Source: Christensenellaceae bacterium
Lineage (GTDB): Bacteria; Bacillota; Clostridia; Christensenellales; QAND01
DNA: 24,000 bases
Reading direction: 5' to 3'
Assembly: GCA_963674495.2 (NCBI GenBank)
Contig: CAXXLG010000002.1
Location: 841,154 to 865,153 of the forward strand
The position numbers were made by a program, and so were the translations under genes. Below the pieces are notes generated by a model. The model was not told the DNA's origin, did no database searches, and worked only from the letters and a program-made list of their open reading frames with translations. Below, in pieces: positions 2,811 through 22,959 of the stretch. Numbering within the stretch: the first letter of the stretch is position 1; every line of letters starts with the position of its first letter.

Positions 2811-4997
2811 ATGGCTGACAATACATTAAATAAGTATATAACCGCATCGGTTGCGCATATTACCTATCGAAATGAAGCGAATGGCTATACGGTGGTGGAT
2901 GTCGAAAACGAAGAGATGGCGTTCACTGCTGTGGGCGTTATGCCGCGCCTGGGCGAAGGGGAAGACGTGGAGCTTGCCGGAGTATGGACCGAACACCGCG
3001 AATACGGCAGGCAACTGTCCGTGAGCTCTTGCCGCCTAGCCATACCGTGTGGCACCGAGCAGATGGAACGCTTTTTGGCAAGCGGCCTGATCAGAAATTG
3101 CGGCGTTAGCACCGCGCGCGCCATCGTGCGCAAATTTGCTGAGGATACAGCAGAAGTTTTGCAGTTTGCCCCCCATCGTTTACAGGAAATACCCGGCATT
3201 GGCCCGGTCATTGCGCAGCGTATCGGAGATTCCTATCGGGAAAACATGGACATGCGCACCGTCATCGCAGGACTTTCGGATTATGGTGTAACCGTAGGCC
3301 AGGCACTGCGCATCGCAAAGGAATATGGGGCGGACGGTGTGACGATGGTAAAGGAGAATCCGTACCGGCTGGCCGAGGACATTTTCGGCATCGGATTCAA
3401 GACGGCGGATAGCATCGCCATGCAGATGGGCATCGCATCCGATGCACCGGCGCGTATCGGCGCCGGACTGAACTATACGCTGACGCTAGCGGCGGGCAAG
3501 GGACATACGTACTTGCCGGCTAAAATCCTTTGCGATTATGCAGCCAAGCAGCTTCGGGTGCCGCTGGATCTTGTCAAATGCACGGCGGCCCGCATGGTGC
3601 AGACCGGTGAGCTGTTCATCGGACAGGGAGAGGATGAGCCGGTGTATAGCCGTCCTTTTTATTATACCGAGAAGGAGTGTGCCGAAAGGCTGTACGCACT
3701 ATGCGTCGCAGTTCCAAAGCTCTTGCGCGCCGATGCGCAGAAGACGATTACGATGAAGGAACACAGCACGGAGCTGACCCTGTCGGAAAAGCAGCGTGCG
3801 GCTGTGCACACAGGCGTTACCGGTCCGGTATGCGTAATCACCGGCGGCCCTGGCACCGGCAAAACAACAATCGTGCAGTTTTTGCTTTCGGTATTTGACG
3901 TTGCGGGACAGGAAGTGGTGCTGTGCGCGCCAACAGGGCGCGCCGCCAAACGCATTACCGAGGCGACCGGACGGGAAGCCAAAACCATCCATCGCCTGTT
4001 GGAATACGGACGGGGAGAGACAATGGAAGAGGCATACGGTAAAAACGAAGACAATCCGTTGTCTGCGGCGGTGGTCGTTGTGGACGAGATGTCGATGGTG
4101 GACGTGTTTTTGATGGTGCGTCTTTTAAGGGCTGTCCAGAAGGGTGCAAGGTTGATTTTAATCGGCGATGCCGACCAGCTGCCGTCGGTGGGCCCTGGAC
4201 ACGTGTTGCACGACATCATCGCCTGTGAGGCCATTCCAGTCGTATCGCTGGACACCGTATACCGACAGGGCGAGGGAAGCATGATTTCCGTTAATGCCCA
4301 GCGCATCAACCACGGGAAGATGCCTGTGCACGGGCAAGACGAGTTCACCATCGTTCCGTGCGAAAACACGCGCCAGATATGGGAGGCGGTGGAAAACATC
4401 ATCCAGCAGAACGATGGACAGGTTATTACACCCATGCGAAAGGGCGATATGGGCGTGGTGGGTTTGAACGAGCGGTTGCAGGCGCTGTGCAATCCGCCTT
4501 CTTCACACAAGCAGCAATTGCCTGCACCATGGCAGCCTCTGCGGCTTTTAGACAAGGTGATGCAGATCAAAAATGATTACCGCATGGAATGGGAGCGCGA
4601 TGACGGGGCGGTGTATGAAAAAGGGTTGGGTGTGTTCAACGGGGAGATGGGGATACTGCAACACATCGATATGGATTGTCAGGAGGCCGCCGTGCAGTAC
4701 GATGACGGGCGCGTGGCCCGTTACACGTTCGGACGGACCGATATGCTGGAGTTGGCCTACGCCATCAGCATACATAAATCCCAGGGCAGCGAGTTTGACA
4801 ACGTGGTAATCGTACTTGCGGGAGGGCCTCCTATGTTATATACGCGCAACTTACTGTATACTGCTGTCACCCGCGCCAAAAAGCGGCTATGGATTGTGGG
4901 CAAAACCTATGCGTTGCGCCAGATGGTGCGCAACAACCGCACCCGTGCCCGTTACAGCGGTTTACACAAGGCGCTTGGCGCGCTGTTTGCCCCATGA
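2811..4997 (+). CDS. recD2: ATP-dependent RecD2-type SF1B DNA helicase
   Basis: 728 aa with an N-terminal OB/HhH-like region. Motifs seen are Walker A GGPGTGKTT, Walker B VVVDEMSMVD, IGDADQLPSVGPG, the C-terminal YAISIHKSQGSEF and YTAVTRAK. Confidence 0.9.
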   Translation: MADNTLNKYITASVAHITYRNEANGYTVVDVENEEMAFTAVGVMPRLGEGEDVELAGVWTEHREYGRQLSVSSCRLAIPCGTEQMERFLASGLIRNCGVSTARAIVRKFAEDTAEVLQFAPHRLQEIPGIGPVIAQRIGDSYRENMDMRTVIAGLSDYGVTVGQALRIAKEYGADGVTMVKENPYRLAEDIFGIGFKTADSIAMQMGIASDAPARIGAGLNYTLTLAAGKGHTYLPAKILCDYAAKQLRVPLDLVKCTAARMVQTGELFIGQGEDEPVYSRPFYYTEKECAERLYALCVAVPKLLRADAQKTITMKEHSTELTLSEKQRAAVHTGVTGPVCVITGGPGTGKTTIVQFLLSVFDVAGQEVVLCAPTGRAAKRITEATGREAKTIHRLLEYGRGETMEEAYGKNEDNPLSAAVVVVDEMSMVDVFLMVRLLRAVQKGARLILIGDADQLPSVGPGHVLHDIIACEAIPVVSLDTVYRQGEGSMISVNAQRINHGKMPVHGQDEFTIVPCENTRQIWEAVENIIQQNDGQVITPMRKGDMGVVGLNERLQALCNPPSSHKQQLPAPWQPLRLLDKVMQIKNDYRMEWERDDGAVYEKGLGVFNGEMGILQHIDMDCQEAAVQYDDGRVARYTFGRTDMLELAYAISIHKSQGSEFDNVVIVLAGGPPMLYTRNLLYTAVTRAKKRLWIVGKTYALRQMVRNNRTRARYSGLHKALGALFAP

Positions 4998-5644
4998 ATG
5001 CGCTCAAGGGGCTTGGGCAATTGGTCTGCCCAGAGGACGTCAGCTGTATGTTGTGCGCTGCAGAGAAAGGGATGGGTAACGGTACTGGATTGTGTGACAA
5101 ATGCTTGCGTACGTTGGACAAATACGACGGAGAAAGGGATATCGAGGGATTTACGCTGTACGCCGCCTATGTATATTCCGGCGCGGTGGCGACATTGATC
5201 CACGGTCTCAAATACGAGAACAAACGGTATATGGCGTTGCCGCTCATACGGGGACTCGTTGAGACATATGGCGTCAACGGGCTGGCATCGGATGCGATCG
5301 TACCGGTGCCGCTACATAAAAAAAGGCGGAAACAGCGAGGATTCAACCAATCGGTACTGTTGGGACAGGGGCTTTGCGAGCATACCGGCATTCCGCTATG
5401 GTGCGATGTGCTTACACGCATACGTGATACCGGACAACAGGTTGGTCTGAGCGAAGAGGATCGTTGGCAAAACGTCTACGATGCGTTTTCATGCACGATC
5501 AATCTGGAAGGCAAGCGTGTCGTTTTGGTTGATGACGTATGTACAACAGGCGCTACGATGTTGGCGTGTGCGCGCACGCTCGCGGGCCTTGGCGCCCGCG
5601 TGACACTGCTGTGCGCGGCAACGGTAAGCGGCTGCAACAGCTGA
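4994..5644 (+). CDS. comFC: ComF family protein (ComFC, phosphoribosyltransferase-like competence protein)
   Basis: It has an N-terminal Cys-rich zinc finger (CMLCAAE...CDKC) and the PRTase motif VVLVDDVCTTGATM. The ATG at 4994 overlaps the recD2 TGA as ATGA. The ORF-track start at 4889 would lie inside recD2. Confidence 0.85.
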   Translation: MNALKGLGQLVCPEDVSCMLCAAEKGMGNGTGLCDKCLRTLDKYDGERDIEGFTLYAAYVYSGAVATLIHGLKYENKRYMALPLIRGLVETYGVNGLASDAIVPVPLHKKRRKQRGFNQSVLLGQGLCEHTGIPLWCDVLTRIRDTGQQVGLSEEDRWQNVYDAFSCTINLEGKRVVLVDDVCTTGATMLACARTLAGLGARVTLLCAATVSGCNS

Positions 5645-5738: not shown

Positions 5739-5767
5739 TTGCATTTTTTTACTACTTCCGATACAAT
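5739..5767 (+). promoter_or_regulatory. Strong sigma-A type promoter driving the structured RNA below
   Basis: TTGCAT (5739-5744), a 17-nt spacer, then TACAAT (5762-5767). A very AT-rich UP-like tract at 5700-5738 precedes it. Confidence 0.7.
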
Positions 5768-5778
5768 CAAGGCAAAGA

Positions 5779-5997
5779 CATAGCATACTCAGGTCTGTGG
5801 TTGAAAATCGACGCCAGTCGCAGGCGAAACGATCCACGTAAACCGTAAAAACGCGGTGATCATGGTGCGGCTTAGGAGTAAGGCCGGCTAGGACATAGAT
5901 CCTGAGAGGTGGAGTAGTGGGGGGGCAGATGCCCTATGAGCAAAACATCCTGCCGGCGAATGTGGGGGCAAAGACCAGGTCAGCTGAGTATGCTGTG
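5779..5997 (+). ncRNA. Candidate raiA-motif structured ncRNA (~220 nt)
   Basis: A 14-bp long-range closing helix, CATAGCATACTCAG (5779-5792) with CTGAGTATGCTGTG (5984-5997, one G.U), encloses GC-rich sequence with local hairpins. It has its own promoter about 12 nt upstream. Its position between comFC and hpf/raiA is the signature context of the raiA motif. This was not verified with a covariance model. Confidence 0.65.
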
Positions 5998-6024
5998 ACT
6001 AAAAACAAAGCGAGGGAAAAAAAC

Positions 6025-6297
6025 ATGTACGAGGACAGAACGCTTGTGTGTCGTGATTGTGGCGCCGAATTCGTATTCACCGTAGGTGAACAGGAGTTTT
6101 TCGCAGAAAAAGGATTCACGAATGATCCTGTGCGTTGTCGTGAATGCCGAGCCAGTAAGAAAGCGACACGGCGTGAACGGGTTACCTACCGGACCGTATG
6201 TGCCAACTGTGGTGCCGAAACAGAAGTTCCGTTTATCCCAAAGAATGACAAGCCCATCTATTGCAATGAATGTTTTGCGCAAATGCGCAATCGATAA
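6025..6297 (+). CDS. Small zinc-ribbon protein with two CxxC-x17-CxxC modules
   Basis: 90 aa with CRDC...CREC and CANC...CNEC pairs. GAGGG lies 8 nt upstream of the ATG at 6025. The ORF-track start at 5917 lies inside the structured RNA and has no RBS. Confidence 0.75.
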   Translation: MYEDRTLVCRDCGAEFVFTVGEQEFFAEKGFTNDPVRCRECRASKKATRRERVTYRTVCANCGAETEVPFIPKNDKPIYCNECFAQMRNR

Positions 6298-6312
6298 AAC
6301 GAATGTCCTTAA

Positions 6313-6335
6313 AGGGCGCGAAAGCGCTCTTTTTC
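6313..6335 (+). terminator. Intrinsic terminator after the zinc-ribbon gene
   Basis: Stem AGGGCGC / GCGCTCT with a GAAA loop, followed by TTTTCATTTTT. Confidence 0.75.
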
Positions 6336-6371
6336 ATTTTTAGAATTCTATGTGTGCAGCATTTGTCCTCG

Positions 6372-6380
6372 TGATATAAT
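6372..6380 (+). promoter_or_regulatory. Extended -10 promoter for hpf
   Basis: TGaTATAAT (TG at 6372-6373, TATAAT at 6375-6380), about 30 nt upstream of the hpf RBS. The -35 element is weak. Confidence 0.55.
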
Positions 6381-6412: not shown

Positions 6413-6961
6413 ATGCAGATATCCATCAACGGCAAAGGGATGCAGGTATCCGACTATCTGGCGGAGGTTGTGGAAAAGCGCGTGCAGAAACTGGAAAAAT
6501 ATCTTAAGGACGATGTGCGTGTTCAGGTTATGCTGTCCATGTTCCGCGGAAGGCAGGTTGCCGAAATCACAGTGCCCATTGGCACCACGATTCTACGAGC
6601 TGAAGAGGCGACGGGCGATATGTACGCGTCCATTGACAATGCCGCCAAAAAACTTGAGCGGCAGATTTTACGCTACCGCGCGCGCATGGACAAACAGATG
6701 CACGAGAAGTCTATCCGATTTCAAACGCCGGAGATGCCCGAAGAGGGCGAGGATGAGACGGCGATGGGGGATGACTGGCCGCGTGTTGTCAGAACCAAGC
6801 GCTTTTCCATCAAACCGATGTCGGTGGACGAAGCGGCGATGCAAATGGATATGCTGGGGCATACGTTCTATGTGTTCTGTTCGGCGGAAAACGGGAGCGT
6901 CAACGTATTGTACAAACGCAATGACGGTCAGCTCGGACTGATCGAACCTGAACTTGGCTGA
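6413..6961 (+). CDS. hpf: Ribosome hibernation promoting factor, long form (HPF/RaiA/YvyD family)
   Basis: 182 aa with an N-terminal S30AE domain (MQISINGKGMQVSDYL...) and a C-terminal dimerisation domain (KRFSIKPMSVDEAAMQMDMLGHTFYVF). A GGAAAGGAG RBS precedes the ATG at 6413. Confidence 0.9.
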   Translation: MQISINGKGMQVSDYLAEVVEKRVQKLEKYLKDDVRVQVMLSMFRGRQVAEITVPIGTTILRAEEATGDMYASIDNAAKKLERQILRYRARMDKQMHEKSIRFQTPEMPEEGEDETAMGDDWPRVVRTKRFSIKPMSVDEAAMQMDMLGHTFYVFCSAENGSVNVLYKRNDGQLGLIEPELG

Positions 6962-6973
6962 TGAGAACGCGTT

Positions 6974-7003
6974 AAAACGCGCAGCTGTGCTGCGCGTTTT
7001 TTT
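6974..7003. terminator. Bidirectional intrinsic terminator shared by hpf and the convergent ABC-F gene
   Basis: A 12-bp stem AAAACGCGCAGC / GCTGCGCGTTTT with a 3-nt loop and T/A runs on both sides. Confidence 0.85.
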
Positions 7004-12162: not shown

Positions 12163-12231
12163 TTTTTGTGGACAAGTGTCATGCGGCAGGGATGTTGATG
12201 CATACATTGTTGGATGAAAGGGGGATGTGCC

Positions 12232-13551
12232 GTGAACATCAAACAACAATATATCGTACTGTATGCACAAGATCACAAAACTACAACGGGATTTGTCAAA
12301 TTGACATACCGGGGTGACGAGACCAGGGTGAACACCCGGGTTTCCGTGTGCGCTGATGCAAGGGTTGAGGTAATGCTGGACAACGGAATGCAGCGAATAC
12401 GCCTGCCCTTGCAAGCGCAGCATGGCATGCATGTGGCCAACCACGGTGCGCGCTTTGGCGGTACGCGCATCGTGGTGGCAGTATGTGATGATGGCGGGTT
12501 GTTGGCGTTGGGTGAAAGCAGGCTGCCCAAAGCAAACTGGCATTTATACGGGAGATTGTGCAAGATGGGGAACGCAGCTGGCCAGACCATGGTCGAAACA
12601 AAGGAAAGGCTTGTAGAACCTGTTTCTCAAATCTCTGAGACGTATGGGGAGAAGCAAGCGAAAGCCGTGTATGGTGGACAGGATGATGCACCCATAACGG
12701 AAGATGCATATGATCAAACGCCGGCCATGCAGACCATGCAGGAAAAACAGGAACGCCCCGCCCATGTAAAATACGCCGAGCCGGAAAGATCCCAGCCGGA
12801 TGCGGTGACCGCGGCGGATGATCTGCCCGATATCGGGTGGCCGCAGCATGAAGAACAAGCACAACCCATGGGAATGAAGCAGGCTGAACCGCCATGTGAG
12901 CAGAATAACGAGGATCAATCACCGACGGACGAACGGCTTGTGGAAACGCCGTATGAGTCCGATGAACCACAAGGGTCCAGCGTGCAGGAGCCGGACGTAT
13001 CGCCATGCCATGCAACGGCCGATATGGACGTATTTGGAACGGATGAAACCGATCCGATTTGTTTTCAAACAGATGAGCCGGTGGATGTATCCACGCATTC
13101 GCGGCAAAGGTCTTTTCTCAGTGCGCGGCAATCCGTACAATCCTCGAACGAACTTGACGGGGATGCGGTGTCCAGGGCACAGGATAACCACCTCCCGCAA
13201 GATGTGAGCATACCAAAAGGTTGTCCGTACGTTATGCCTCCACCCATCAACGCGGCTGTACAAAAGCCGGTAATGTTTCAAACAGGCGATACGCAAAAGG
13301 CGATCAAGTTGAACGTTGAAGGACCGTACGCACAGCTTTGGAAGTGGCGTCGTGTAACGTCCAAAGAAAGGGGATACAGTTATTTGATGGGAGAAGTGGA
13401 ACAAAGCGGCAAAGTCGTCGCCGTGGCCGTTGCTGTACCGGGCGTATATGCGCCTGCTCCCCCCGCCAACCTACGGGGCTTTACAATTTTCCGAGAAGGT
13501 TATTGGTTGTTGGCACAGGATGCGCAAACGGGGGAACGCCTACCCATTTAA
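12232..13551 (+). CDS. Hypothetical protein with small N- and C-terminal domains joined by a ~230-aa acidic, Q/E/P/D-rich low-complexity region
   Basis: It is a long ORF bounded by the rsmA terminator. I prefer the GTG start at 12232 because GGGGGA lies 6-7 nt upstream. The ATG at 12214 has no RBS. I recognise no family motif. Confidence 0.6.
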   Translation: MNIKQQYIVLYAQDHKTTTGFVKLTYRGDETRVNTRVSVCADARVEVMLDNGMQRIRLPLQAQHGMHVANHGARFGGTRIVVAVCDDGGLLALGESRLPKANWHLYGRLCKMGNAAGQTMVETKERLVEPVSQISETYGEKQAKAVYGGQDDAPITEDAYDQTPAMQTMQEKQERPAHVKYAEPERSQPDAVTAADDLPDIGWPQHEEQAQPMGMKQAEPPCEQNNEDQSPTDERLVETPYESDEPQGSSVQEPDVSPCHATADMDVFGTDETDPICFQTDEPVDVSTHSRQRSFLSARQSVQSSNELDGDAVSRAQDNHLPQDVSIPKGCPYVMPPPINAAVQKPVMFQTGDTQKAIKLNVEGPYAQLWKWRRVTSKERGYSYLMGEVEQSGKVVAVAVAVPGVYAPAPPANLRGFTIFREGYWLLAQDAQTGERLPI

Positions 13552-13601: not shown

Positions 13602-15836
13602 CTATGGAATCAGCGCTTGTGGTGCCCGCGCATCCGTCGCTTCGCCGGGAGCAAAGTATGCTTCCAACACGGCGCGTGCAACCGGCGCGGCATAGGAACC
13701 GTGTCCGCCCTGCGCGATCATGACGGCGACGGCGATGCGAGGATTATCCGCCGGTGCATAGGCCAAAAACCAGGCGAACGCATCCCGACCGGTACTCTGT
13801 GCCGTACCGGTTTTGGCAGCAACGGACAGTTTGCATCCATCAAATGCGCTGCTGGCCGTTCCGCTTCGCACGGCCTCTTCCATACCGCTCATGACGGTGT
13901 GTACATAGGATGCATTCAAAAAAGCTTCGCTGGCAACGACGGACGAAACGTCGCCCGTGCTATCCGGTAGCGACAGAACCAGCCGCGGCGTATGGCGCAG
14001 TCCGTTTTGCGTGATGGCGGCAACGGCATTGGCCATTTGTACCACGGTGACGGTGGTGTCTCCCTGCCCGATGGCAGCCGCGAGAATACGCGACGGACGC
14101 CATCGAATCAGATCTATGCTTTGGTAAAGGGACAGTGACTGCGCCGCGTTAAAACCCAGCGGCTCGAAAAGCTCCTTTGCCATTGATGGCGATGGATCTA
14201 AAAGCAGCGCCCATATCGCCTTTTCTGTGGCAACTTCATCCACACCGGGTAGTATCGTGCGCATGTTTGCAAGCGTTTGTTTCACTGCCTGAGTATCGCA
14301 TAGCGCTTGGCTGTCCAGCGTACCGTCCGCTTCGCCCAACAGGCCGATGCCCGTTTTTTCGCCAAGACCGAGTCTGCGCGCCATATCTGCCAACGATTCC
14401 GATCCTGTACGAACACCCATCTCATAGAAATAATAATTGCACGATACGGCAAGCGCCTTTTGCATATTTACCAGCCCATGTGTTGTGTGATGTTCATTCC
14501 AAATCCAACAGGCAGGAGCGTCGACCTCAGAAAAATAGGTATACCTACCTTTTGCCAAAATAAATTCTTCCGCAGTAACCACCTGTTTTTCAAGCGCGGC
14601 GAGCGCAGTGACGGGCTTAAACATGCTGCCCGGCGCAAATGCGTTGACGATAGCGTTGTTGATCAGGGGGCGGGGCAGCGTCGGATCACGATTGGTCTCG
14701 CCCGCGGTGGTCAGATATGTGGGGTTAAGTACCTGCCAAGTTTCCTCGTCCAACGTCTGTAAAAACAGGTTGGGATCGTAGGATGGAACCGATGCCATGG
14801 CAAGCACTTCGCTGCTTTGCACATCTATGGCTACCACAGCGCCGATGCTAGCGCTGGAGAACGATTCACCGTACGCGCCTGATCTGATGTTGGACATCGT
14901 ACTTTCAAGCGTTTGCTCCGCCACTGCCTGCAGCGATGCATCCAGTGTCAGCACCACGGTTTCTCCGTCCTGCGCCGGCGTTTGAGACAATACGGCGTTT
15001 CGGTGACCAGTGCTGTCCACCGAAACGGTTACTTCGCCCGCTGTGGGATGCAGCACCTGCTCATACTGAGCTTCAAGGCCGCTTTTTCCTACGATGTCGG
15101 TGTAGATATCGTAGCCTTTTTGTGTATAGGAATCGGCGTCCTCCGCGCTGATTTTACCCAAATACCCAAGACCGTGACAAAAGAGCGTACCGTTTGGATA
15201 TACGCGAACCGGGACCTCCTTACACGTAATGCCCGGCATGATGATACTGTTTTCCGCAAACTGTGCACACAGCGTGGCGTCGGCAAACAACGCAAGCCGC
15301 ACCGGTTTGTAGGCGCGGTAGCTTTGTTGGCTGAGCTGTAGGCGTACCGCCAATACCATAAGATGCGCTTCCTTTGGAATATCCTGTACGCCATAGCGGT
15401 CTACAAGCGCCGCGACAGCATCGTCCGCTGCACAGTCCAGGGAAAGTTTCTGTTCGGACAAGAACACAGATATGTCTGATTGGGTATAGGTATATGCATT
15501 GTTTTCCCATATTATGGGAATGGTACAGGCGGGGGCAACGCCCGCATTGTCAAGAATGACCAAAGCCGCATAGATGCTCTGGTTCAGTTGCGTTTTTTGC
15601 ACGTCGCTGGGCGTTAAAGATACTTCGTACATCAGCGAAGTGCCGGCCAGTATGCGGCCGTATCGATCGACGATCAGCCCGCGCGCGCCTTCCACCGATA
15701 TGGTGCGCACGCGCGATTCGCGCGCCTGTGTGGCATAGTGGTTTCCGCGGATGATCTGTAAAAAAAACAGGATACCAATCAACATGGTAACGCTGGCAAC
15801 ACAGACCAGGCGGAAAGCCCCAATTCTTCGCAGCAT
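13602..15836 (-). CDS. Class B penicillin-binding protein (PBP2/SpoVD/FtsI-type transpeptidase)
   Basis: It has an N-terminal TM anchor and a dimerisation domain. Transpeptidase motifs are SMFK (SxxK), SCN (SxN) and KTGTA (KTG). I prefer the ATG at 15836 because GGAAAGGTG lies 6 nt upstream. Confidence 0.88.
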   Translation of the reverse strand: MLRRIGAFRLVCVASVTMLIGILFFLQIIRGNHYATQARESRVRTISVEGARGLIVDRYGRILAGTSLMYEVSLTPSDVQKTQLNQSIYAALVILDNAGVAPACTIPIIWENNAYTYTQSDISVFLSEQKLSLDCAADDAVAALVDRYGVQDIPKEAHLMVLAVRLQLSQQSYRAYKPVRLALFADATLCAQFAENSIIMPGITCKEVPVRVYPNGTLFCHGLGYLGKISAEDADSYTQKGYDIYTDIVGKSGLEAQYEQVLHPTAGEVTVSVDSTGHRNAVLSQTPAQDGETVVLTLDASLQAVAEQTLESTMSNIRSGAYGESFSSASIGAVVAIDVQSSEVLAMASVPSYDPNLFLQTLDEETWQVLNPTYLTTAGETNRDPTLPRPLINNAIVNAFAPGSMFKPVTALAALEKQVVTAEEFILAKGRYTYFSEVDAPACWIWNEHHTTHGLVNMQKALAVSCNYYFYEMGVRTGSESLADMARRLGLGEKTGIGLLGEADGTLDSQALCDTQAVKQTLANMRTILPGVDEVATEKAIWALLLDPSPSMAKELFEPLGFNAAQSLSLYQSIDLIRWRPSRILAAAIGQGDTTVTVVQMANAVAAITQNGLRHTPRLVLSLPDSTGDVSSVVASEAFLNASYVHTVMSGMEEAVRSGTASSAFDGCKLSVAAKTGTAQSTGRDAFAWFLAYAPADNPRIAVAVMIAQGGHGSYAAPVARAVLEAYFAPGEATDARAPQALIP

Positions 15837-15868
15837 AATGAACACCTTTCCGTATGGAACTACAGACA

Positions 15869-15911
15869 TACGACAGTCGAAACAGCGCTGTGTTTATCCT
15901 ATTTTGTCGAA
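15869..15911. promoter_or_regulatory. Cluster of Spo0A-box-like sites in the PBP / spo0A divergent region
   Basis: Exact TGTCGAA at 15905-15911, AGTCGAA (6/7) at 15875-15881, and inverted TACGACA (TGTCGTA on the minus strand, 6/7) at 15869-15875. These lie 137-180 nt upstream of the spo0A ATG. Confidence 0.45.
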
Positions 15912-16047: not shown

Positions 16048-16818
16048 ATGAACCAAAGCAAACGCCTGTTGATTGTGGAGGATGACTACGAGCTGAGCGC
16101 GATGTTGGAAAAGAATTTACAGAGGCTTTCCGCTTTCGAAAGCATCACCTGCACGGCAAGCGGAAAGGAAGCGATAGAGGCCTTGGGTGATGTGGATGCG
16201 GTTGTACTGGATCTGATCATCCCGGATCTTGATGGCATCAGCGTGTTGGAGAAAATGGTTGAACTTATGCCGGAAGAACGCCCGGAGGTTATCGTTGTAT
16301 CCTCCTTTGCCAGCGAAGAGATCATCCGGCATACGCTGTCGCTGGGCGCGCGGTATTTCATGGTCAAGCCCTATTCAATGGAAAGCCTGCAAAAGCGAAT
16401 CATGGACGTTTTGGGTCAGCGGGAGCGGCCTAGAATGGGGCAGAGTATCGGCCCCGTAACGCAACACCGTTCGCAGGATGAACGCATCACAGGCGTATTT
16501 TTAACGGTGGGCATACCGGCACACATCAAAGGATATCATTACCTTCGCCAAGCCATCAAACTGGTCATGGCGGATGAATCGCTGGTCAGCCGTATCACCA
16601 AGGAGTTATATCCGCGTGTGGCGGAGCATTTTGACACCACCTCCAGTAAGGTTGAGCGTGCCATCCGCCATGCGATCGAAGTGGCATGGACGCGCGGCAA
16701 GATCGAGAACATCAATAAGATGTTTGGATTCCAGGTGTACACGAAACACGAGAAACCCACCAACGGTGAATTTATCGCGCTGGTGGCGGATAAACTGGTG
16801 TTGGAACAGAGCGCATAG
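16048..16818 (+). CDS. spo0A: Sporulation master response regulator Spo0A
   Basis: It has a receiver domain (LIVEDD, VVLDLIIPDLDG, MVKP). The diagnostic Spo0A C-terminal motifs are present (GIPAHIKGYHYLRQAI, SKVERAIRHAIEVAWTRG). An AGAGGGAAG RBS is present. Confidence 0.95.
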   Translation: MNQSKRLLIVEDDYELSAMLEKNLQRLSAFESITCTASGKEAIEALGDVDAVVLDLIIPDLDGISVLEKMVELMPEERPEVIVVSSFASEEIIRHTLSLGARYFMVKPYSMESLQKRIMDVLGQRERPRMGQSIGPVTQHRSQDERITGVFLTVGIPAHIKGYHYLRQAIKLVMADESLVSRITKELYPRVAEHFDTTSSKVERAIRHAIEVAWTRGKIENINKMFGFQVYTKHEKPTNGEFIALVADKLVLEQSA

Positions 16819-17154: not shown

Positions 17155-17271
17155 GTTCATTTTTGTGCAAGTATACACAAAACCATCTATTATTTTTTGA
17201 CTTTATGATGGGTTTATACGTTTGTGCGTCATATTTTTTTTGTGCTGTGACTATGCATAGTAACGTATGGG

Positions 17272-17299
17272 CACCATGGATTTTATGTCCCATATGGTA
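17272..17299 (+). promoter_or_regulatory. Candidate mother-cell (sigma-K/sigma-E type) promoter for the SipL/SpoVID-like gene
   Basis: cACc (17272-17275), a 16-nt gap after the AC dinucleotide, then CATATGGTA (17291-17299). This matches the B. subtilis sigma-K pattern mACm-16-CATAnnnTA. It lies inside the ORF-track 5' extension. Confidence 0.4.
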
Positions 17300-17323
17300 T
17301 ATTTGCGACAGGGGGAGAAAGAT

Positions 17324-18847
17324 TTGGAACATAATAAAGTGAACCAACGAATCTTACGCCATACCGGTGGCGCCTTTTCACAGGCCGTGATTGAAGGGGA
17401 GGTGGCGCTGCCAGTAGGTAAGCCCGAGATGGCGCGGCTGCTTCTGGTACGCGGACGGGCGGAGACTGGCAGCGTGGAAAGCTTGGATCAAAAGGCGATG
17501 ACCGACGGTACGCTGACGTTATGCGTATGTTACCTCGACCAGGAAGAACAGTTGCATGCGTTTGAATCGGTGTCCACGTTCAAACACACTGCCGATGTGC
17601 CCGGTGCACAGGCCGGTATGCGCGGAACGGCGGCTGCTGACGTGAGCGAAATTGAGACGACGATGACGGATGGGCGGCGCATCAACGTTTCCGCCGTCAT
17701 CGACATTTTCTTCAGCATTCAGGATGAGGTTGACTTTGCCTATATGGTACCGTCGCAGCACGAGGGTATGATGTACAAAACCAAGACGCTGACATTTGAA
17801 AAACGCTGTGCCCGCGCCACCACTGCTACCGAGATCAGCGGCGAGTGCGACATACCAAACGGTCAGCCCGGTATCCTGCAGGTGTTGGATTGTCAGGGGC
17901 AGGCGGATGTTCAGCAGGCTTTTGGCGAAGACGACCTCCTGTGCGTGGAAGGAGAGCTCAAGATTTCCATCGCTTATGCTACCAACAACCCGCAAACGCC
18001 CATTGCGCAGAGCTTTGCCCAGATCCCGTTTTCCGAAATGTTACCCGCACCCGGCGCGGCACAGGATCAGCACGTTACGGCAATGGTCAAGGTTAAGGAT
18101 CTTTATGCCAACGGCAGCGAAGACGGCGGAACCATCGAGATACGTGCGGTATGTGCTATTGAGTTGGAAGCGCAGCAATCCATGGAGATCGAGGTGGTGG
18201 AGGATGCTTATGCCCTATCCTGTGAAACGCAGGTGCAGTTGAAAATGGTACAGATGAGCCGGTGTGCCGCCAATTATACCGGTGTGGAGGCGGTTCGCGA
18301 GACCGCGGCAATGACAAATGCCGACGATATGGCGCAGGTTTTAGCTGTGTTTGCCACGCCCAGCGCGGCTCGGGCAACGGCGGGTGAAGGCATGATCACG
18401 CTCGAAAGTGTGATAAGCTGCCAAATCGTTTATACTGATCGTGAGGGACGACTTTACAGCAAGATGGTGCAGTGGCCTGTGAACATGGATCAGCAGGCCC
18501 CCGCGTGCACACCGCAGAGCCATCCCATGGCTCAGATGTATGCTGAACAGGCACAGGCGATGCTGACCTCCGACGGCGTGGATGTACGTGTGCTTTTCAA
18601 CTGGCAGGTATGCATTATGCAGACCGAGGAAACTGCCATTGCAGATCAGATCATCATGAAGGAGGATCAGGATAAAATGGTCCCCAGCGGTGTCGTCGTG
18701 TATTTCACCAGTGAAGGGGATATGCTTTGGGACATTGCCAAGCGCTATCGTATATCCACGCAAGACGTTCTACGCCACAATAGGGAAGCGCAGGAACCGT
18801 TCGCACGGGGCGAACGCCTTGTGCTTATGTGCAGACATGTGAGCTAG
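17324..18847 (+). CDS. SipL/SpoVID-like spore morphogenetic protein with DUF3794 (SPOCS) repeats and a C-terminal LysM domain
   Basis: The C-terminal LysM reads VVVYFTSEGDMLWDIAKRYRISTQDVLRHN. The body has repeated beta-rich DUF3794-like segments. The position veg-X-ispE matches C. difficile veg-sipL-ispE. I prefer the TTG start at 17324 because GGGGGAG lies 5-6 nt upstream. ATG 17267 is the ORF-track alternative. Confidence 0.7.
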   Translation: MEHNKVNQRILRHTGGAFSQAVIEGEVALPVGKPEMARLLLVRGRAETGSVESLDQKAMTDGTLTLCVCYLDQEEQLHAFESVSTFKHTADVPGAQAGMRGTAAADVSEIETTMTDGRRINVSAVIDIFFSIQDEVDFAYMVPSQHEGMMYKTKTLTFEKRCARATTATEISGECDIPNGQPGILQVLDCQGQADVQQAFGEDDLLCVEGELKISIAYATNNPQTPIAQSFAQIPFSEMLPAPGAAQDQHVTAMVKVKDLYANGSEDGGTIEIRAVCAIELEAQQSMEIEVVEDAYALSCETQVQLKMVQMSRCAANYTGVEAVRETAAMTNADDMAQVLAVFATPSAARATAGEGMITLESVISCQIVYTDREGRLYSKMVQWPVNMDQQAPACTPQSHPMAQMYAEQAQAMLTSDGVDVRVLFNWQVCIMQTEETAIADQIIMKEDQDKMVPSGVVVYFTSEGDMLWDIAKRYRISTQDVLRHNREAQEPFARGERLVLMCRHVS

Positions 18848-20878: not shown

Positions 20879-21574
20879 ATGAAGATCCGACGCGGTATCG
20901 TCATGGTCATCACCATGGCTTTGACACTGTCACTGTTGTTGCCGATGGTGGGTATCCATATCGAGCCGGATCAAACGGCTTCTGCTGCCGGTGCGACGTT
21001 ACGTAGCGGGGATCGTGGTAGTACCGTTGAGCAGATACAACAACGGCTGCGTGATTGGGGCTATTATTTCGGCCAGGTGGATGGTATATTCGGCGCTCAG
21101 ACGGAACAGGCCGTCAAGAAATTTCAAAAAAAACATGGCCTTGTGGCGGACGGTATCGTCGGGCCCGCCACCGCTGAAAAGATCGGCATCTCACTTTCCG
21201 GCGTGTCGTCGGGCAACAGGTACCAGGCTGATCTCAACCTTTTGGCACACGTGGTGCACGGCGAGGCACGCGGCGAGCCGTACAAGGGAAAGGTTGCTGT
21301 GGCGGCGGTGGTTTTAAACCGTGTGGACAACGCCAGTTTTCCCAATGCATTATCCGGCGTCGTATATCAGCCGCGCGCGTTCTCCATCGTGGATGATGGG
21401 CAAATAAACCTCACGCCGGACAGCGAATCCATACGTGCGGCCAAGGATGCGCTCAACGGCTATGACCCGACAAGCGGATGTCTTTTCTACTACAATCCGG
21501 CCAAGACCACCAGCAAATGGATGCTCAGTAAGCCGATATACCTTCGTATCGGTACACACGTGTTTTGTAAATGA
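20879..21574 (+). CDS. sleB: Spore cortex-lytic enzyme SleB (PG_binding_1 plus Hydrolase_2 domains)
   Basis: It has a signal peptide and a peptidoglycan-binding repeat (VEQIQQRLRDWGYYFGQVDGIFGAQTEQAVKKFQKKHGLVADGIVG). The SleB/CwlJ catalytic domain is present (LLAHVVHGEARGEPYKGKVAVAAVVLNRV ... YYNP). The next gene is ypeB. Confidence 0.88.
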   Translation: MKIRRGIVMVITMALTLSLLLPMVGIHIEPDQTASAAGATLRSGDRGSTVEQIQQRLRDWGYYFGQVDGIFGAQTEQAVKKFQKKHGLVADGIVGPATAEKIGISLSGVSSGNRYQADLNLLAHVVHGEARGEPYKGKVAVAAVVLNRVDNASFPNALSGVVYQPRAFSIVDDGQINLTPDSESIRAAKDALNGYDPTSGCLFYYNPAKTTSKWMLSKPIYLRIGTHVFCK

Positions 21575-21585
21575 GGAGCGCTTCG

Positions 21586-22959
21586 ATGCATACGGATGAT
21601 ATCAACCAATCGAGAAAAAGCATCAGAGGATTTTGGCAGCGTCATGGATGGGCGCTTACAGCGGGTATCTTAGGCGCGGGTCTTGTGGCGGCCATCGTGT
21701 TTGGCATAACGGCGAACGTATCATTCAACCGGGCACAGACGTTGTTGAACAATTCCTACCGCAATGCGTTCAATACCGTAGGCGACCATTTGCACGGCAT
21801 AAGCACCGACCTTGTCAAAATGCGCGTGTGCACCTCCTCCGCCCAGCAATCCATCCTGCTGTATACCGTTTGGCGGGAGGCGGGGCAAGCACAGAGCGGA
21901 CTTTCGCGACTGCCGGTGGATGAACAATCCGGCAACGCCATGTTGCAGTTCGTCAACAGGCTGGGCGACTTTTGTTTTACGCTGGCTCGCCGCGTGGAGC
22001 AGGGCGTTGACATCACGGACGACGAATTTGAAACATTGCGCACTCTAGAGCGCCAGGCGGAAAATGTGGCGACGCAGGTTGAAACGCTTCGGGAGAGCGG
22101 CGTGGAGTGGGAACAGGCACAGATTGCTTGGGACAAGGGAGACGAAGCGCCCACGCTGGACGGGATCAGCCAGGTGTCGGACAGTATACAGGAGTATCCA
22201 TCGTTGATTTACGACGGCCCATATTCTGAACGGGCGGAGAACATCGAGCCAAAAGCAGCCACGGGCGAAACGGTGTCGTATGAGCAAGCGGTAAAAGTGG
22301 CCAAACGCTTTGTTGAGGGGACATACACACGCAATGAAGATGCCGGCGCCCAGGTGCCAACGTATTGTATGACGTGTACGCGTGATGACGGTGTCGAAGT
22401 CGACATATGCGTAACGAAAAAAGTCGGGATGATCTACACTATTCTACCGGGCGGCGCAGCAGCCACAGATGTATACCCGACACAGGAGCAAGTGCCCGCG
22501 CTGATCGAAGTGGCCAAAGAATATCTGCAAAATCGCGGGTTCCCAGCCATGCAATCCGCCTATGCACAGTACTATGCGGGTTCAGCGGTGATCAATATGG
22601 TGCCGGTTGAGAACGATATCCTGCTGTATCCCGATCTTGTCAAGGTATGGGTGGACATCACAACCAGGGAGGTTCTTGGGTTGGATGCGCACAACTATAC
22701 GGTGTCGCATGTTGAAAGGGAGTTTCCAACCGAACTGTACGATCAACAGACACTTACCGACCGGGTTGCTCAGCGGTTAAGCATTGAGAATGTGCGTCTG
22801 GCCATGATCCCCTATAACACAACCGGGGAAAGGCTGTGCTATGAGTTCACCGGAACCAACGGCGAGGATACCTTTGCGGTGTATGTCAATGCGATCACGG
22901 GGGATGAGCTGGACATTAAGCTCATCGTGGACGCGGAAGACGGAACATTCACCTACTGA
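21586..22959 (+). CDS. ypeB: Germination protein YpeB (SleB partner with PepSY-type C-terminal repeats)
   Basis: It has an N-terminal TM segment, is about 450 aa long, and lies directly downstream of sleB. I prefer the ATG at 21586 with AGGAG 7 nt upstream. ATG 21571, overlapping the sleB stop, is the alternative. Confidence 0.8.
   Translation: MHTDDINQSRKSIRGFWQRHGWALTAGILGAGLVAAIVFGITANVSFNRAQTLLNNSYRNAFNTVGDHLHGISTDLVKMRVCTSSAQQSILLYTVWREAGQAQSGLSRLPVDEQSGNAMLQFVNRLGDFCFTLARRVEQGVDITDDEFETLRTLERQAENVATQVETLRESGVEWEQAQIAWDKGDEAPTLDGISQVSDSIQEYPSLIYDGPYSERAENIEPKAATGETVSYEQAVKVAKRFVEGTYTRNEDAGAQVPTYCMTCTRDDGVEVDICVTKKVGMIYTILPGGAAATDVYPTQEQVPALIEVAKEYLQNRGFPAMQSAYAQYYAGSAVINMVPVENDILLYPDLVKVWVDITTREVLGLDAHNYTVSHVEREFPTELYDQQTLTDRVAQRLSIENVRLAMIPYNTTGERLCYEFTGTNGEDTFAVYVNAITGDELDIKLIVDAEDGTFTY

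Follow-up and report, generated by a model that had tools for sequence, protein, structure and literature searches.

The window analysed here, a stretch of 24,000 nucleotides (nt) from a Christensenellaceae bacterium (contig CAXXLG010000002.1, positions 841,154 to 865,153 of the forward strand), carries at 5779-5997 (+) what is practically certain to be a gene encoding an RNA of the raiA motif (ModT), and directly behind it a gene for a small zinc-finger protein. Taken as a whole, the locus is very likely best explained by a raiA RNA that is transcribed from its own promoter and acts in trans, with the zinc-finger gene co-transcribed in this lineage. This kind of RNA is already known, and the window copy is an ordinary, full-length member of it.

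A full-length raiA RNA without P2

Scanning the whole window against Rfam 15 returned a single match, RF03072 (raiA), at 5784-5992 on the plus strand, with a score of 189.7 bits (E 6.2e-49) where the gathering score is 101.3 bits. The match spans model positions 1-209 of 209, and it is the one raiA copy within the 24 kb. An earlier sequence-only reading of this DNA had proposed a probable raiA-motif non-coding RNA and expected a covariance-model match over about 5775-6000; the scan bears this out, what that reading stated about the class is accurate (PMC10861870), and no counter-evidence to the raiA identity was found. On folding, a 228-nt stretch reaches -85.2 kcal/mol (z = -4.05), a value that none of 200 shuffles equalled. 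The class has been catalogued in about 2,700 species. The structure line of RF03072 in Rfam is that of the 2017 model, with PK1 drawn nested and with P3 and the 5-bp P4 missing; in the literature of 2024-2026 the fold has been revised and the RNA acts in trans.

We mapped the revised raiA model (PMC10861870), together with the description obtained by cryo-electron microscopy (cryo-EM; PMC12968392), onto the window copy (Table 1). Every model helix could be placed and 66 of 66 pairs are standard, the pseudoknots PK1 and PK2 included. P2 is absent, and the RNA is of the raiA subtype without P2 and with P7-P8, like the structure-solved RNA of Clostridium acetobutylicum. The 14-bp closing helix (5779-5792 with 5984-5997) that the sequence-only reading had pointed out is exact in the sequence, its contiguous pairs being 13 Watson-Crick and one U.G. 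At the junction, UGAAA corresponds to positions U19-A23 of the C. acetobutylicum RNA (PMC12968392), and in the mapped model a bulged A of the 3' linker GGGCAAAG (5966-5973) would be available as the fourth base of the GAA(A) turn. The internal loop of P3 is A-rich and asymmetric (A / AAA), and the U-A pair of PK2 corresponds to C115-G231 in the Nocardioides structure (PMC12968392). The exposed linker UUAGGAGUAA agrees with the published UUAGA(C/A)GUAA at 9 of 10 positions; position 5 is a G in the window copy and in several relatives, and an A in the published consensus. Two local hairpins had been proposed inside the closing helix. That at 5923-5934 is the tip of P8; the other, 5869-5885, lies outside the family structure and was rejected because its bases are needed by the PK1 3' strand (5866-5872), the linker (5872-5881) and the start of P6 (5884-5888).

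The likeness to Ca-raiA (C. acetobutylicum, 204 nt) extends to the helices, bulges, GAA(A) junction, pseudoknots, linker and E-loop arm, and the setting in the window is also that of known raiA loci, with a promoter of the sigma-A type, hpf close by and a ComF-like gene on the upstream side. The window copy departs from its known counterparts in a closing stem that runs for 14 contiguous bp where the Rfam model has 9, in the G of the linker and in the 3' strand of the E-loop, which reads AAA and not GAA.

The structure is supported by covariation in relatives

Species-representative genomes were scanned with the conserved 3' pattern of the RNA, which gave at least 120 raiA loci; from those listed, 32 raiA sequences without P2 were chosen for a covariation alignment. 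With the mapped structure, pseudoknots included, 89.7% of the alignment cells pair, as against 31-43% in a control in which the partners were slid by 1-3 columns. Changes on both sides were seen in 40 pairs, and on five covariation measures none of 500 shuffles reached any observed value. Among single elements, P3a (helix 3) is 100% paired and P3b (helix 4) 94.5%, with both-side changes in each. PK1 is 96.4% paired, with 3 pairs changing on both sides, and P5 is 94.5% paired, with such changes in 4 of 4 pairs. Pairing is 100% in P6, where 3 pairs covary, 85% in P7 and 94.5% in the base of P8, which covaries too. P4 (100% paired) is nearly invariant and PK2 (100% paired) is invariant, and the alignment is therefore silent on both. 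The closing helix and the remaining structure, for which the sequence-only reading had suggested just such a comparison, are thus supported in relatives.

The outermost part of the closing stem behaves differently from a fixed set of pairs: the 5-bp P1 extension, taken as a conserved pair set, was rejected, with pairing in fixed register in only 14-23 of the 32 relatives. When the 24-nt flanks of 95 distinct raiA loci were folded freely as duplexes, mostly 11-20 pairs formed, with internal loops, at a mean of -22.8 kcal/mol versus -10.4 for shuffles. Because most flanks form duplexes of this length, a long closing stem is the rule in the raiA family, and the 9 bp of Rfam understate it. In the zinc-finger-linked clade described below, a distal GGUU/AACC helix is frequent in this stem.

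The RNA has its own promoter signal

The promoter TTGCAT-17-TACAAT that had been proposed at 5739-5767 is read directly in the sequence, is enriched over chance and is conserved in position. With a relaxed pattern, TTG-N20-TANAAT, the window has 5 sites where shuffles give an expectation of 0.71 (0 of 100 shuffles reach 5), and 4 of these 5 sites lie directly upstream of genes. A strict sigma-70 scan did not list the site, since TTGCAT equals TTGACA at only 3 of 6 positions. Across related zinc-finger-linked loci, a TTGnnn-17-TAtAAT element ends 11-22 nt before P1a in all 21 of the 21 inspected, and with the window copy included, 22 of 22 loci keep the promoter at an equivalent place. A SigA promoter has likewise been reported for modT in four clostridia (PMC11706538). 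Judged from the promoter's position, transcription would start at about 5774-5776, three to five bases ahead of the stem; the predicted start of the raiA RNA stands at the foot of the closing stem.

Probable read-through into the zinc-finger gene

Downstream, the RNA is separated from the next open reading frame (ORF) by an A-rich spacer of 27 nt, and no terminator was found between the RNA end and the ORF at 6025. In the minimum-free-energy fold of 5775-6060, the spacer and its ribosome-binding site are unpaired; the local fold of the spacer is no better than that of shuffles, folding found no structure in it that would sequester the Shine-Dalgarno (SD) sequence, and terminator-like spacers number 0 among 51 related loci. 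The first intrinsic terminator 3' of the raiA promoter, a 9-bp stem with a T-run, lies past the zinc-finger gene. Among 50 related loci, 46 have a hairpin with a T-run no more than 110 nt past the stop codon of the zinc-finger gene, and a nearby intrinsic terminator was found in only 12-14 of 87 other raiA loci. We therefore regard it as likely that the RNA is co-transcribed with the zinc-finger gene, the stable RNA presumably being produced by processing or by trimming to P1. In C. acetobutylicum, a discrete RNA is made without a predicted terminator (PMC11706538).

ModT of C. difficile has a short (215 nt) and a long (260 nt) isoform. It belongs to the same family as the window RNA and has the same promoter type, and its 3' end lies at or just past P1, as that of the window RNA probably does. 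There, an intrinsic terminator close downstream gives the long isoform; in the window the terminator comes only past a 273-nt ORF, and for this reason any long isoform would be an RNA-plus-mRNA transcript of about 560 nt. Tight spacing behind raiA also occurs with another gene: in six loci (L022, L027, L055, L081, L087, L117) the hpf start lies only 44-123 nt past the raiA 3' motif, these close-hpf loci belonging to some Acidimicrobiales, Actinomycetes and Anaerovoracaceae lineages. The read-through layout is therefore not unique to the zinc-finger clade.

A conserved tandem of raiA and a two-domain zinc-finger gene

The ORF at 6025 starts 27 nt past the RNA end, behind an open ribosome-binding site, and encodes a protein of 90 amino acids (aa) with the domains zf_Tbcl and zf_Tbcl_2 / CxxC-x17-CxxC. 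All 37 of 37 homologs begin MYEDK..., and the 8 cysteines are invariant. Public gene calls at 5917-6297 (126 aa) and 5929-6297 (122 aa) place the start within the raiA RNA, in the P8 region. Judged from the homologs, these 122- and 126-aa calls are start-codon errors that come from the unannotated RNA, and 90 aa is the true length. An AlphaFold model of the 90-aa protein reached a pLDDT (predicted local distance difference test) of 84.9 and a pTM (predicted template modelling score) of 0.44. Foldseek searches of this model against the PDB gave no match at E 0.001 or better, a sequence search of the PDB gave marginal zinc-knuckle matches only (E >= 0.016), and a literature search for PF13451, zf-trcl or zf_Tbcl found no mention.

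Among the 120 raiA loci listed (of at least 120), 21 carry a homolog of this protein (55-93% identity) on the same strand, 38-119 nt past the RNA 3' motif. Approached from the protein side, raiA stands directly upstream, at 40-52 nt, in 26 of 74 evaluable metagenome loci. Overall the tandem was found in 44 distinct loci (L003, L011, L012, L037, L040, L046, L049, L060, L063, L064, L070, L072, L075, L076, L077, L086, L090, L092, L107, L111, L119, L121-L132 and others). The idea that raiA precedes every zinc-finger homolog was rejected, 48 of the 74 evaluable loci being without raiA; for 20 of these 48, no Rfam family was found within 2.5 kb. Neighbour joining groups the raiA-linked proteins into what is essentially a single clade, with one exception in each direction. 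Around the 44 distinct tandem loci, ComF homologs precede the pair at 9 of 38 and hpf follows it at 8 of 35. What has been kept side by side in this clade is the RNA and the zinc-finger gene, and far less often comFC and hpf. This clade consists of gut and rumen Clostridia, Christensenellales-like and Oscillospirales-like.

Five raiA loci (L011, L060, L089, L058, L083) come from bins labelled Alloprevotella, Bacteroidaceae, Betaproteobacteria or Acidobacteria, labels that fall outside the phyla known for raiA. L011 and L060 are near-identical, Clostridia-like tandem loci, which suggests mis-binned contigs.

Zinc-finger genes without raiA have other conserved regions upstream. A leader of about 110-120 nt recurs in two sets of raiA-less loci (L148, L161, L163, L168, L171, L179, L181, L182, L184, L192 in the first; L162, L165, L166, L167, L170, L173 in the second) and sits about 130 nt upstream of the zinc-finger start (for example L161:2373-2506). 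Within it lie GGTTAGG repeats, an inner hairpin (GGTTAGGGAA...TTCCTAA) and a box, CCCTCTCTCAA, whose sequence is complementary to that of the ribosome-binding site, GAGGAGG. Compared with Rfam 15, permissively to E 1, it gave no relevant family; RNAalifold recovered only the anti-SD/SD helix, which pairs in 10 of 10 sequences and shows no compensatory changes. It may be an undescribed translational leader. Another conserved region, unrelated to this one, lies about 200 nt upstream of the gene in L135, L142, L143, L145, L151, L157, L169, L172 and L183; it reads …CCAGCGCGTGC…CACCTGCAAC…GCCCGCAGGCG…GAGGTCCAAATTTCAAGAATCGAGG and follows the end of a sigma/HTH-like (helix-turn-helix) gene; it may be an RNA or a small ORF.

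Mode of action and alternative explanations

By analogy with its studied relatives, the window RNA probably acts in trans as part of a ribonucleoprotein. Published raiA RNAs are very abundant and stable and have a housekeeping promoter (PMC10861870, PMC11706538). C. acetobutylicum needs raiA for normal sporulation and aggregation (PMC10861870), and C. difficile depends on ModT to enter stationary phase on time, to sporulate and to keep cyclic di-GMP at normal levels (c-di-GMP; PMC11706538), the effect on timing running partly through c-di-GMP levels. Mutants of both species were complemented in trans (PMC10861870, PMC11706538). In vitro, KhpA-KhpB bind four raiA RNAs at about 2 micromolar, and the linker has been proposed as the site (PMC12968392). 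In the literature found to mid-2026, no biochemical activity of raiA RNA is reported.

The sequences show what the window RNA is, how it is built, its promoter signal, the missing terminator and the conserved tandem; its expression, processing, trans action and protein binding we infer, and the steps would be as follows. The sigma-A-type promoter would drive the RNA, the transcript starting a few bases ahead of the closing stem. The long P1 arm closes a core made of the bent P3 hairpin, P4, PK1 and PK2, with P5 and the P6-P7-P8 arm outside and the 10-nt linker exposed. Transcription would run from raiA through the unstructured spacer into the zinc-finger gene and end at the terminator (6311-6332); processing would release the RNA of about 220 nt from this transcript or trim it to the P1 stem. 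As in C. acetobutylicum and C. difficile, the product would be an abundant, stable, trans-acting RNA and not a switch for the neighbouring gene. Within a ribonucleoprotein, the exposed linker would serve as a docking site for binding of the KhpA/KhpB type, and the particle may time the transition from growth to stationary phase and sporulation.

Several points weigh against this account. KhpA/KhpB binding has only micromolar affinity and is shared by many RNAs, and in an earlier study of C. difficile ModT was not found on KhpB. The tight join to the next ORF, with no terminator, is how a cis-acting leader would be laid out, raiA RNAs have been described as usually lying hundreds of bases from the next ORF, from which the window differs, and Rfam 15 types RF03072 as 'Cis-reg; riboswitch'. 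These last points bear on a rival explanation, in which the RNA serves as a leader that controls the zinc-finger gene at 6025-6297 in cis, like a riboswitch or through a bound protein; a ligand or protein on the raiA fold would alter how this gene is transcribed or translated. The ORF lies on the same strand, only 27 nt off, with neither a terminator nor a separate promoter visible, and the arrangement recurs in the 44 distinct loci with a spacing within about 12 nt. The zinc-finger family moreover seems prone to leader control, because raiA-less members have other long conserved leaders, one kind with an apparent anti-SD/SD helix. However, an expression platform is absent: the spacer and SD are unpaired, fold locally like shuffles, and are terminator-like in none of the related loci. 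The adjacent zinc-finger gene is missing from 99 of the 120 listed raiA loci, where the downstream gene and its distance vary, the knock-outs of two species were complemented in trans (PMC10861870, PMC11706538), and no small-molecule binding was seen in vitro (PMC5737381). We regard control of the zinc-finger gene in cis as very improbable indeed.

The RNA could also work in trans as a ribozyme, a catalytic RNA that would, for example, process other RNAs, and not as a protein scaffold. The fold is large and rigid, with about 51 near-invariant nucleotides, of a kind that the discoverers describe as usually catalytic (PMC10861870); the conserved core is intact in the window copy, and the levels of tRNA and 5S RNA are altered in the C. 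difficile mutant. Nevertheless, the literature found reports no catalytic activity, and the cryo-EM structures reveal no obvious active site or substrate (PMC12968392). We consider catalysis highly unlikely. A raiA RNA acting in trans within a ribonucleoprotein is the reading that we retain.

Is the zinc-finger protein a partner of the RNA?

A further question within this reading is whether the zinc-finger protein serves raiA as a dedicated partner or effector, for example by binding the UUAG-containing linker. The spacing of about 40-52 nt from the RNA 3' motif, with no terminator in between, and the persistence of the pair in the 44 distinct loci where comFC and hpf are scarce speak for it, as do homologs outside the clade that have structured leaders of their own, rich in GGUUAGG. 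Against it stand the most part of the raiA-bearing species, which have no zinc-finger gene next to the RNA, and the protein itself, in which no recognisable RNA-binding fold was found. Since the linked proteins belong essentially to one clade, the pattern would also be explained by one fusion in an ancestor, maintained through co-transcription and nothing more. A partnership is, on the gene order and sequences at hand, an unlikely proposition. OLE RNA, a large structured bacterial RNA, is co-encoded with small proteins (OapA and others) that are shown partners. The locus resembles it in that a structured RNA is encoded beside, and would be transcribed with, a small protein gene; unlike for OLE RNA, the raiA-zinc-finger link is one of conserved gene order. 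Published gene-neighbourhood work names no strong protein-partner candidate for raiA. We found no literature that pairs raiA or ModT with a zinc-ribbon protein; the neighbour table of PMC10861870 lay outside this search, and prior notice is possible.

Genomic surroundings

The sequence-only reading had placed the RNA between comFC and hpf, with comFC ending at 5644 and the first start codon behind a ribosome-binding site at 6025. Both positions hold, and a ComF-like gene does lie upstream and hpf downstream. The zinc-finger gene stands in between: the ORF at 6025 is this gene and not hpf, which starts at 6413. The ComF-like ORF matches NCBIfam TIGR00201 (comF) at E 1.8e-29, with 103 bits, below the curated cutoff of 233. 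As listed, the ORF shares its first 109 nt (4889-4997) with the end of recD2, and the ComF model aligns only from residue 53; the true start is probably further downstream. The hpf product scores over the cutoff of TIGR00741, and the gene has, by eye, an apparent extended -10 element (TGaTATAAT, 6372-6380) and a terminator at 6974-7000. Coordinates are collected in Table 1.

The segment had been described as rich in sporulation genes, which is correct: the window holds Spo0A (16048-16818), a SipL/SPOCS-domain protein (17267-18847), a SleB-like cell-wall hydrolase (20879-21574), YpeB (21571-22959) and a class B penicillin-binding protein (13602-15869) on the minus strand. A 445-aa ORF at 12214-13551 has no Pfam match. 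Compared with Christensenella sp. MSJ-20, the zinc-finger protein of the window is 93% identical, RecD2 49% and ComFC 43%. The GC content of the organism is 53%.

Table 1. Features of the raiA locus and elements of the RNA, in window coordinates
Feature	Position	Strand	Basis or remark
ComF/ComFC-like phosphoribosyltransferase gene	4889-5644	+	Pfam Pribosyltran E 1.8e-8
Sigma-A-type promoter	5739-5767	+	-35 TTGCAT 5739-5744, 17-nt spacer, -10 TACAAT 5762-5767
raiA-motif (ModT) RNA with full closing stem	5779-5997	+	Rfam match 5784-5992, structure mapping, covariation
P1 extension	5779-5783 / 5993-5997	+	
P1a	5784-5792 / 5984-5992	+	inner pairs conserved or covarying
GU bulge	5793-5794	+	
P1b	5795-5797 / 5981-5983	+	invariant
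P1c	5798-5801 / 5974-5977	+	invariant
GGU bulge	5978-5980	+	
U-GAA-A junction	5802-5806	+	GAA(A) tetraloop-like turn between P1c and P3a
P3a	5807-5810 / 5830-5833	+	4 bp
P3b	5812-5815 / 5823-5826	+	4 bp
PK1	5816-5822 / 5866-5872	+	7 bp, P3b apical loop with 3' strand
P4	5834-5838 / 5961-5965	+	CCACG/UGUGG
P5 hairpin	5842-5845 / 5854-5857	+	variable stem
PK2	5863-5864 / 5969-5970	+	UG/CA (U-A, G-C)
Exposed single-stranded linker UUAGGAGUAA	5872-5881	+	putative protein-binding site (PMC12968392)
P6	5884-5888 / 5952-5956	+	
P7	5889-5893 / 5900-5904	+	
P8	5908-5949	+	with E-loop-like internal loop AGUA/AAA (GAGUA / AAAA)
A-rich 27-nt spacer	5998-6024	+	ribosome-binding site GAGGG 6012-6016
90-aa protein, two Cys4 zinc-finger domains	6025-6297	+	PF13451 8e-25, PF23477 4e-19, TIGR04272
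Intrinsic terminator	about 6311-6342	+	9-bp stem and T-run
Long-form hpf/raiA-family ribosome hibernation-promoting factor	6413-6961	+	Pfam Ribosomal_S30AE, Ribosom_S30AE_C

Implications

A new raiA copy on its own is one added annotation and little more. Annotating the RNA corrects the over-extended public calls of the zinc-finger gene, and the raiA-zinc-finger unit offers a natural case for how the 3' end of the RNA forms. The conserved, terminator-free unit is, moreover, a concrete and cheaply testable candidate for the missing partner of raiA: a lead, and not a proven link.

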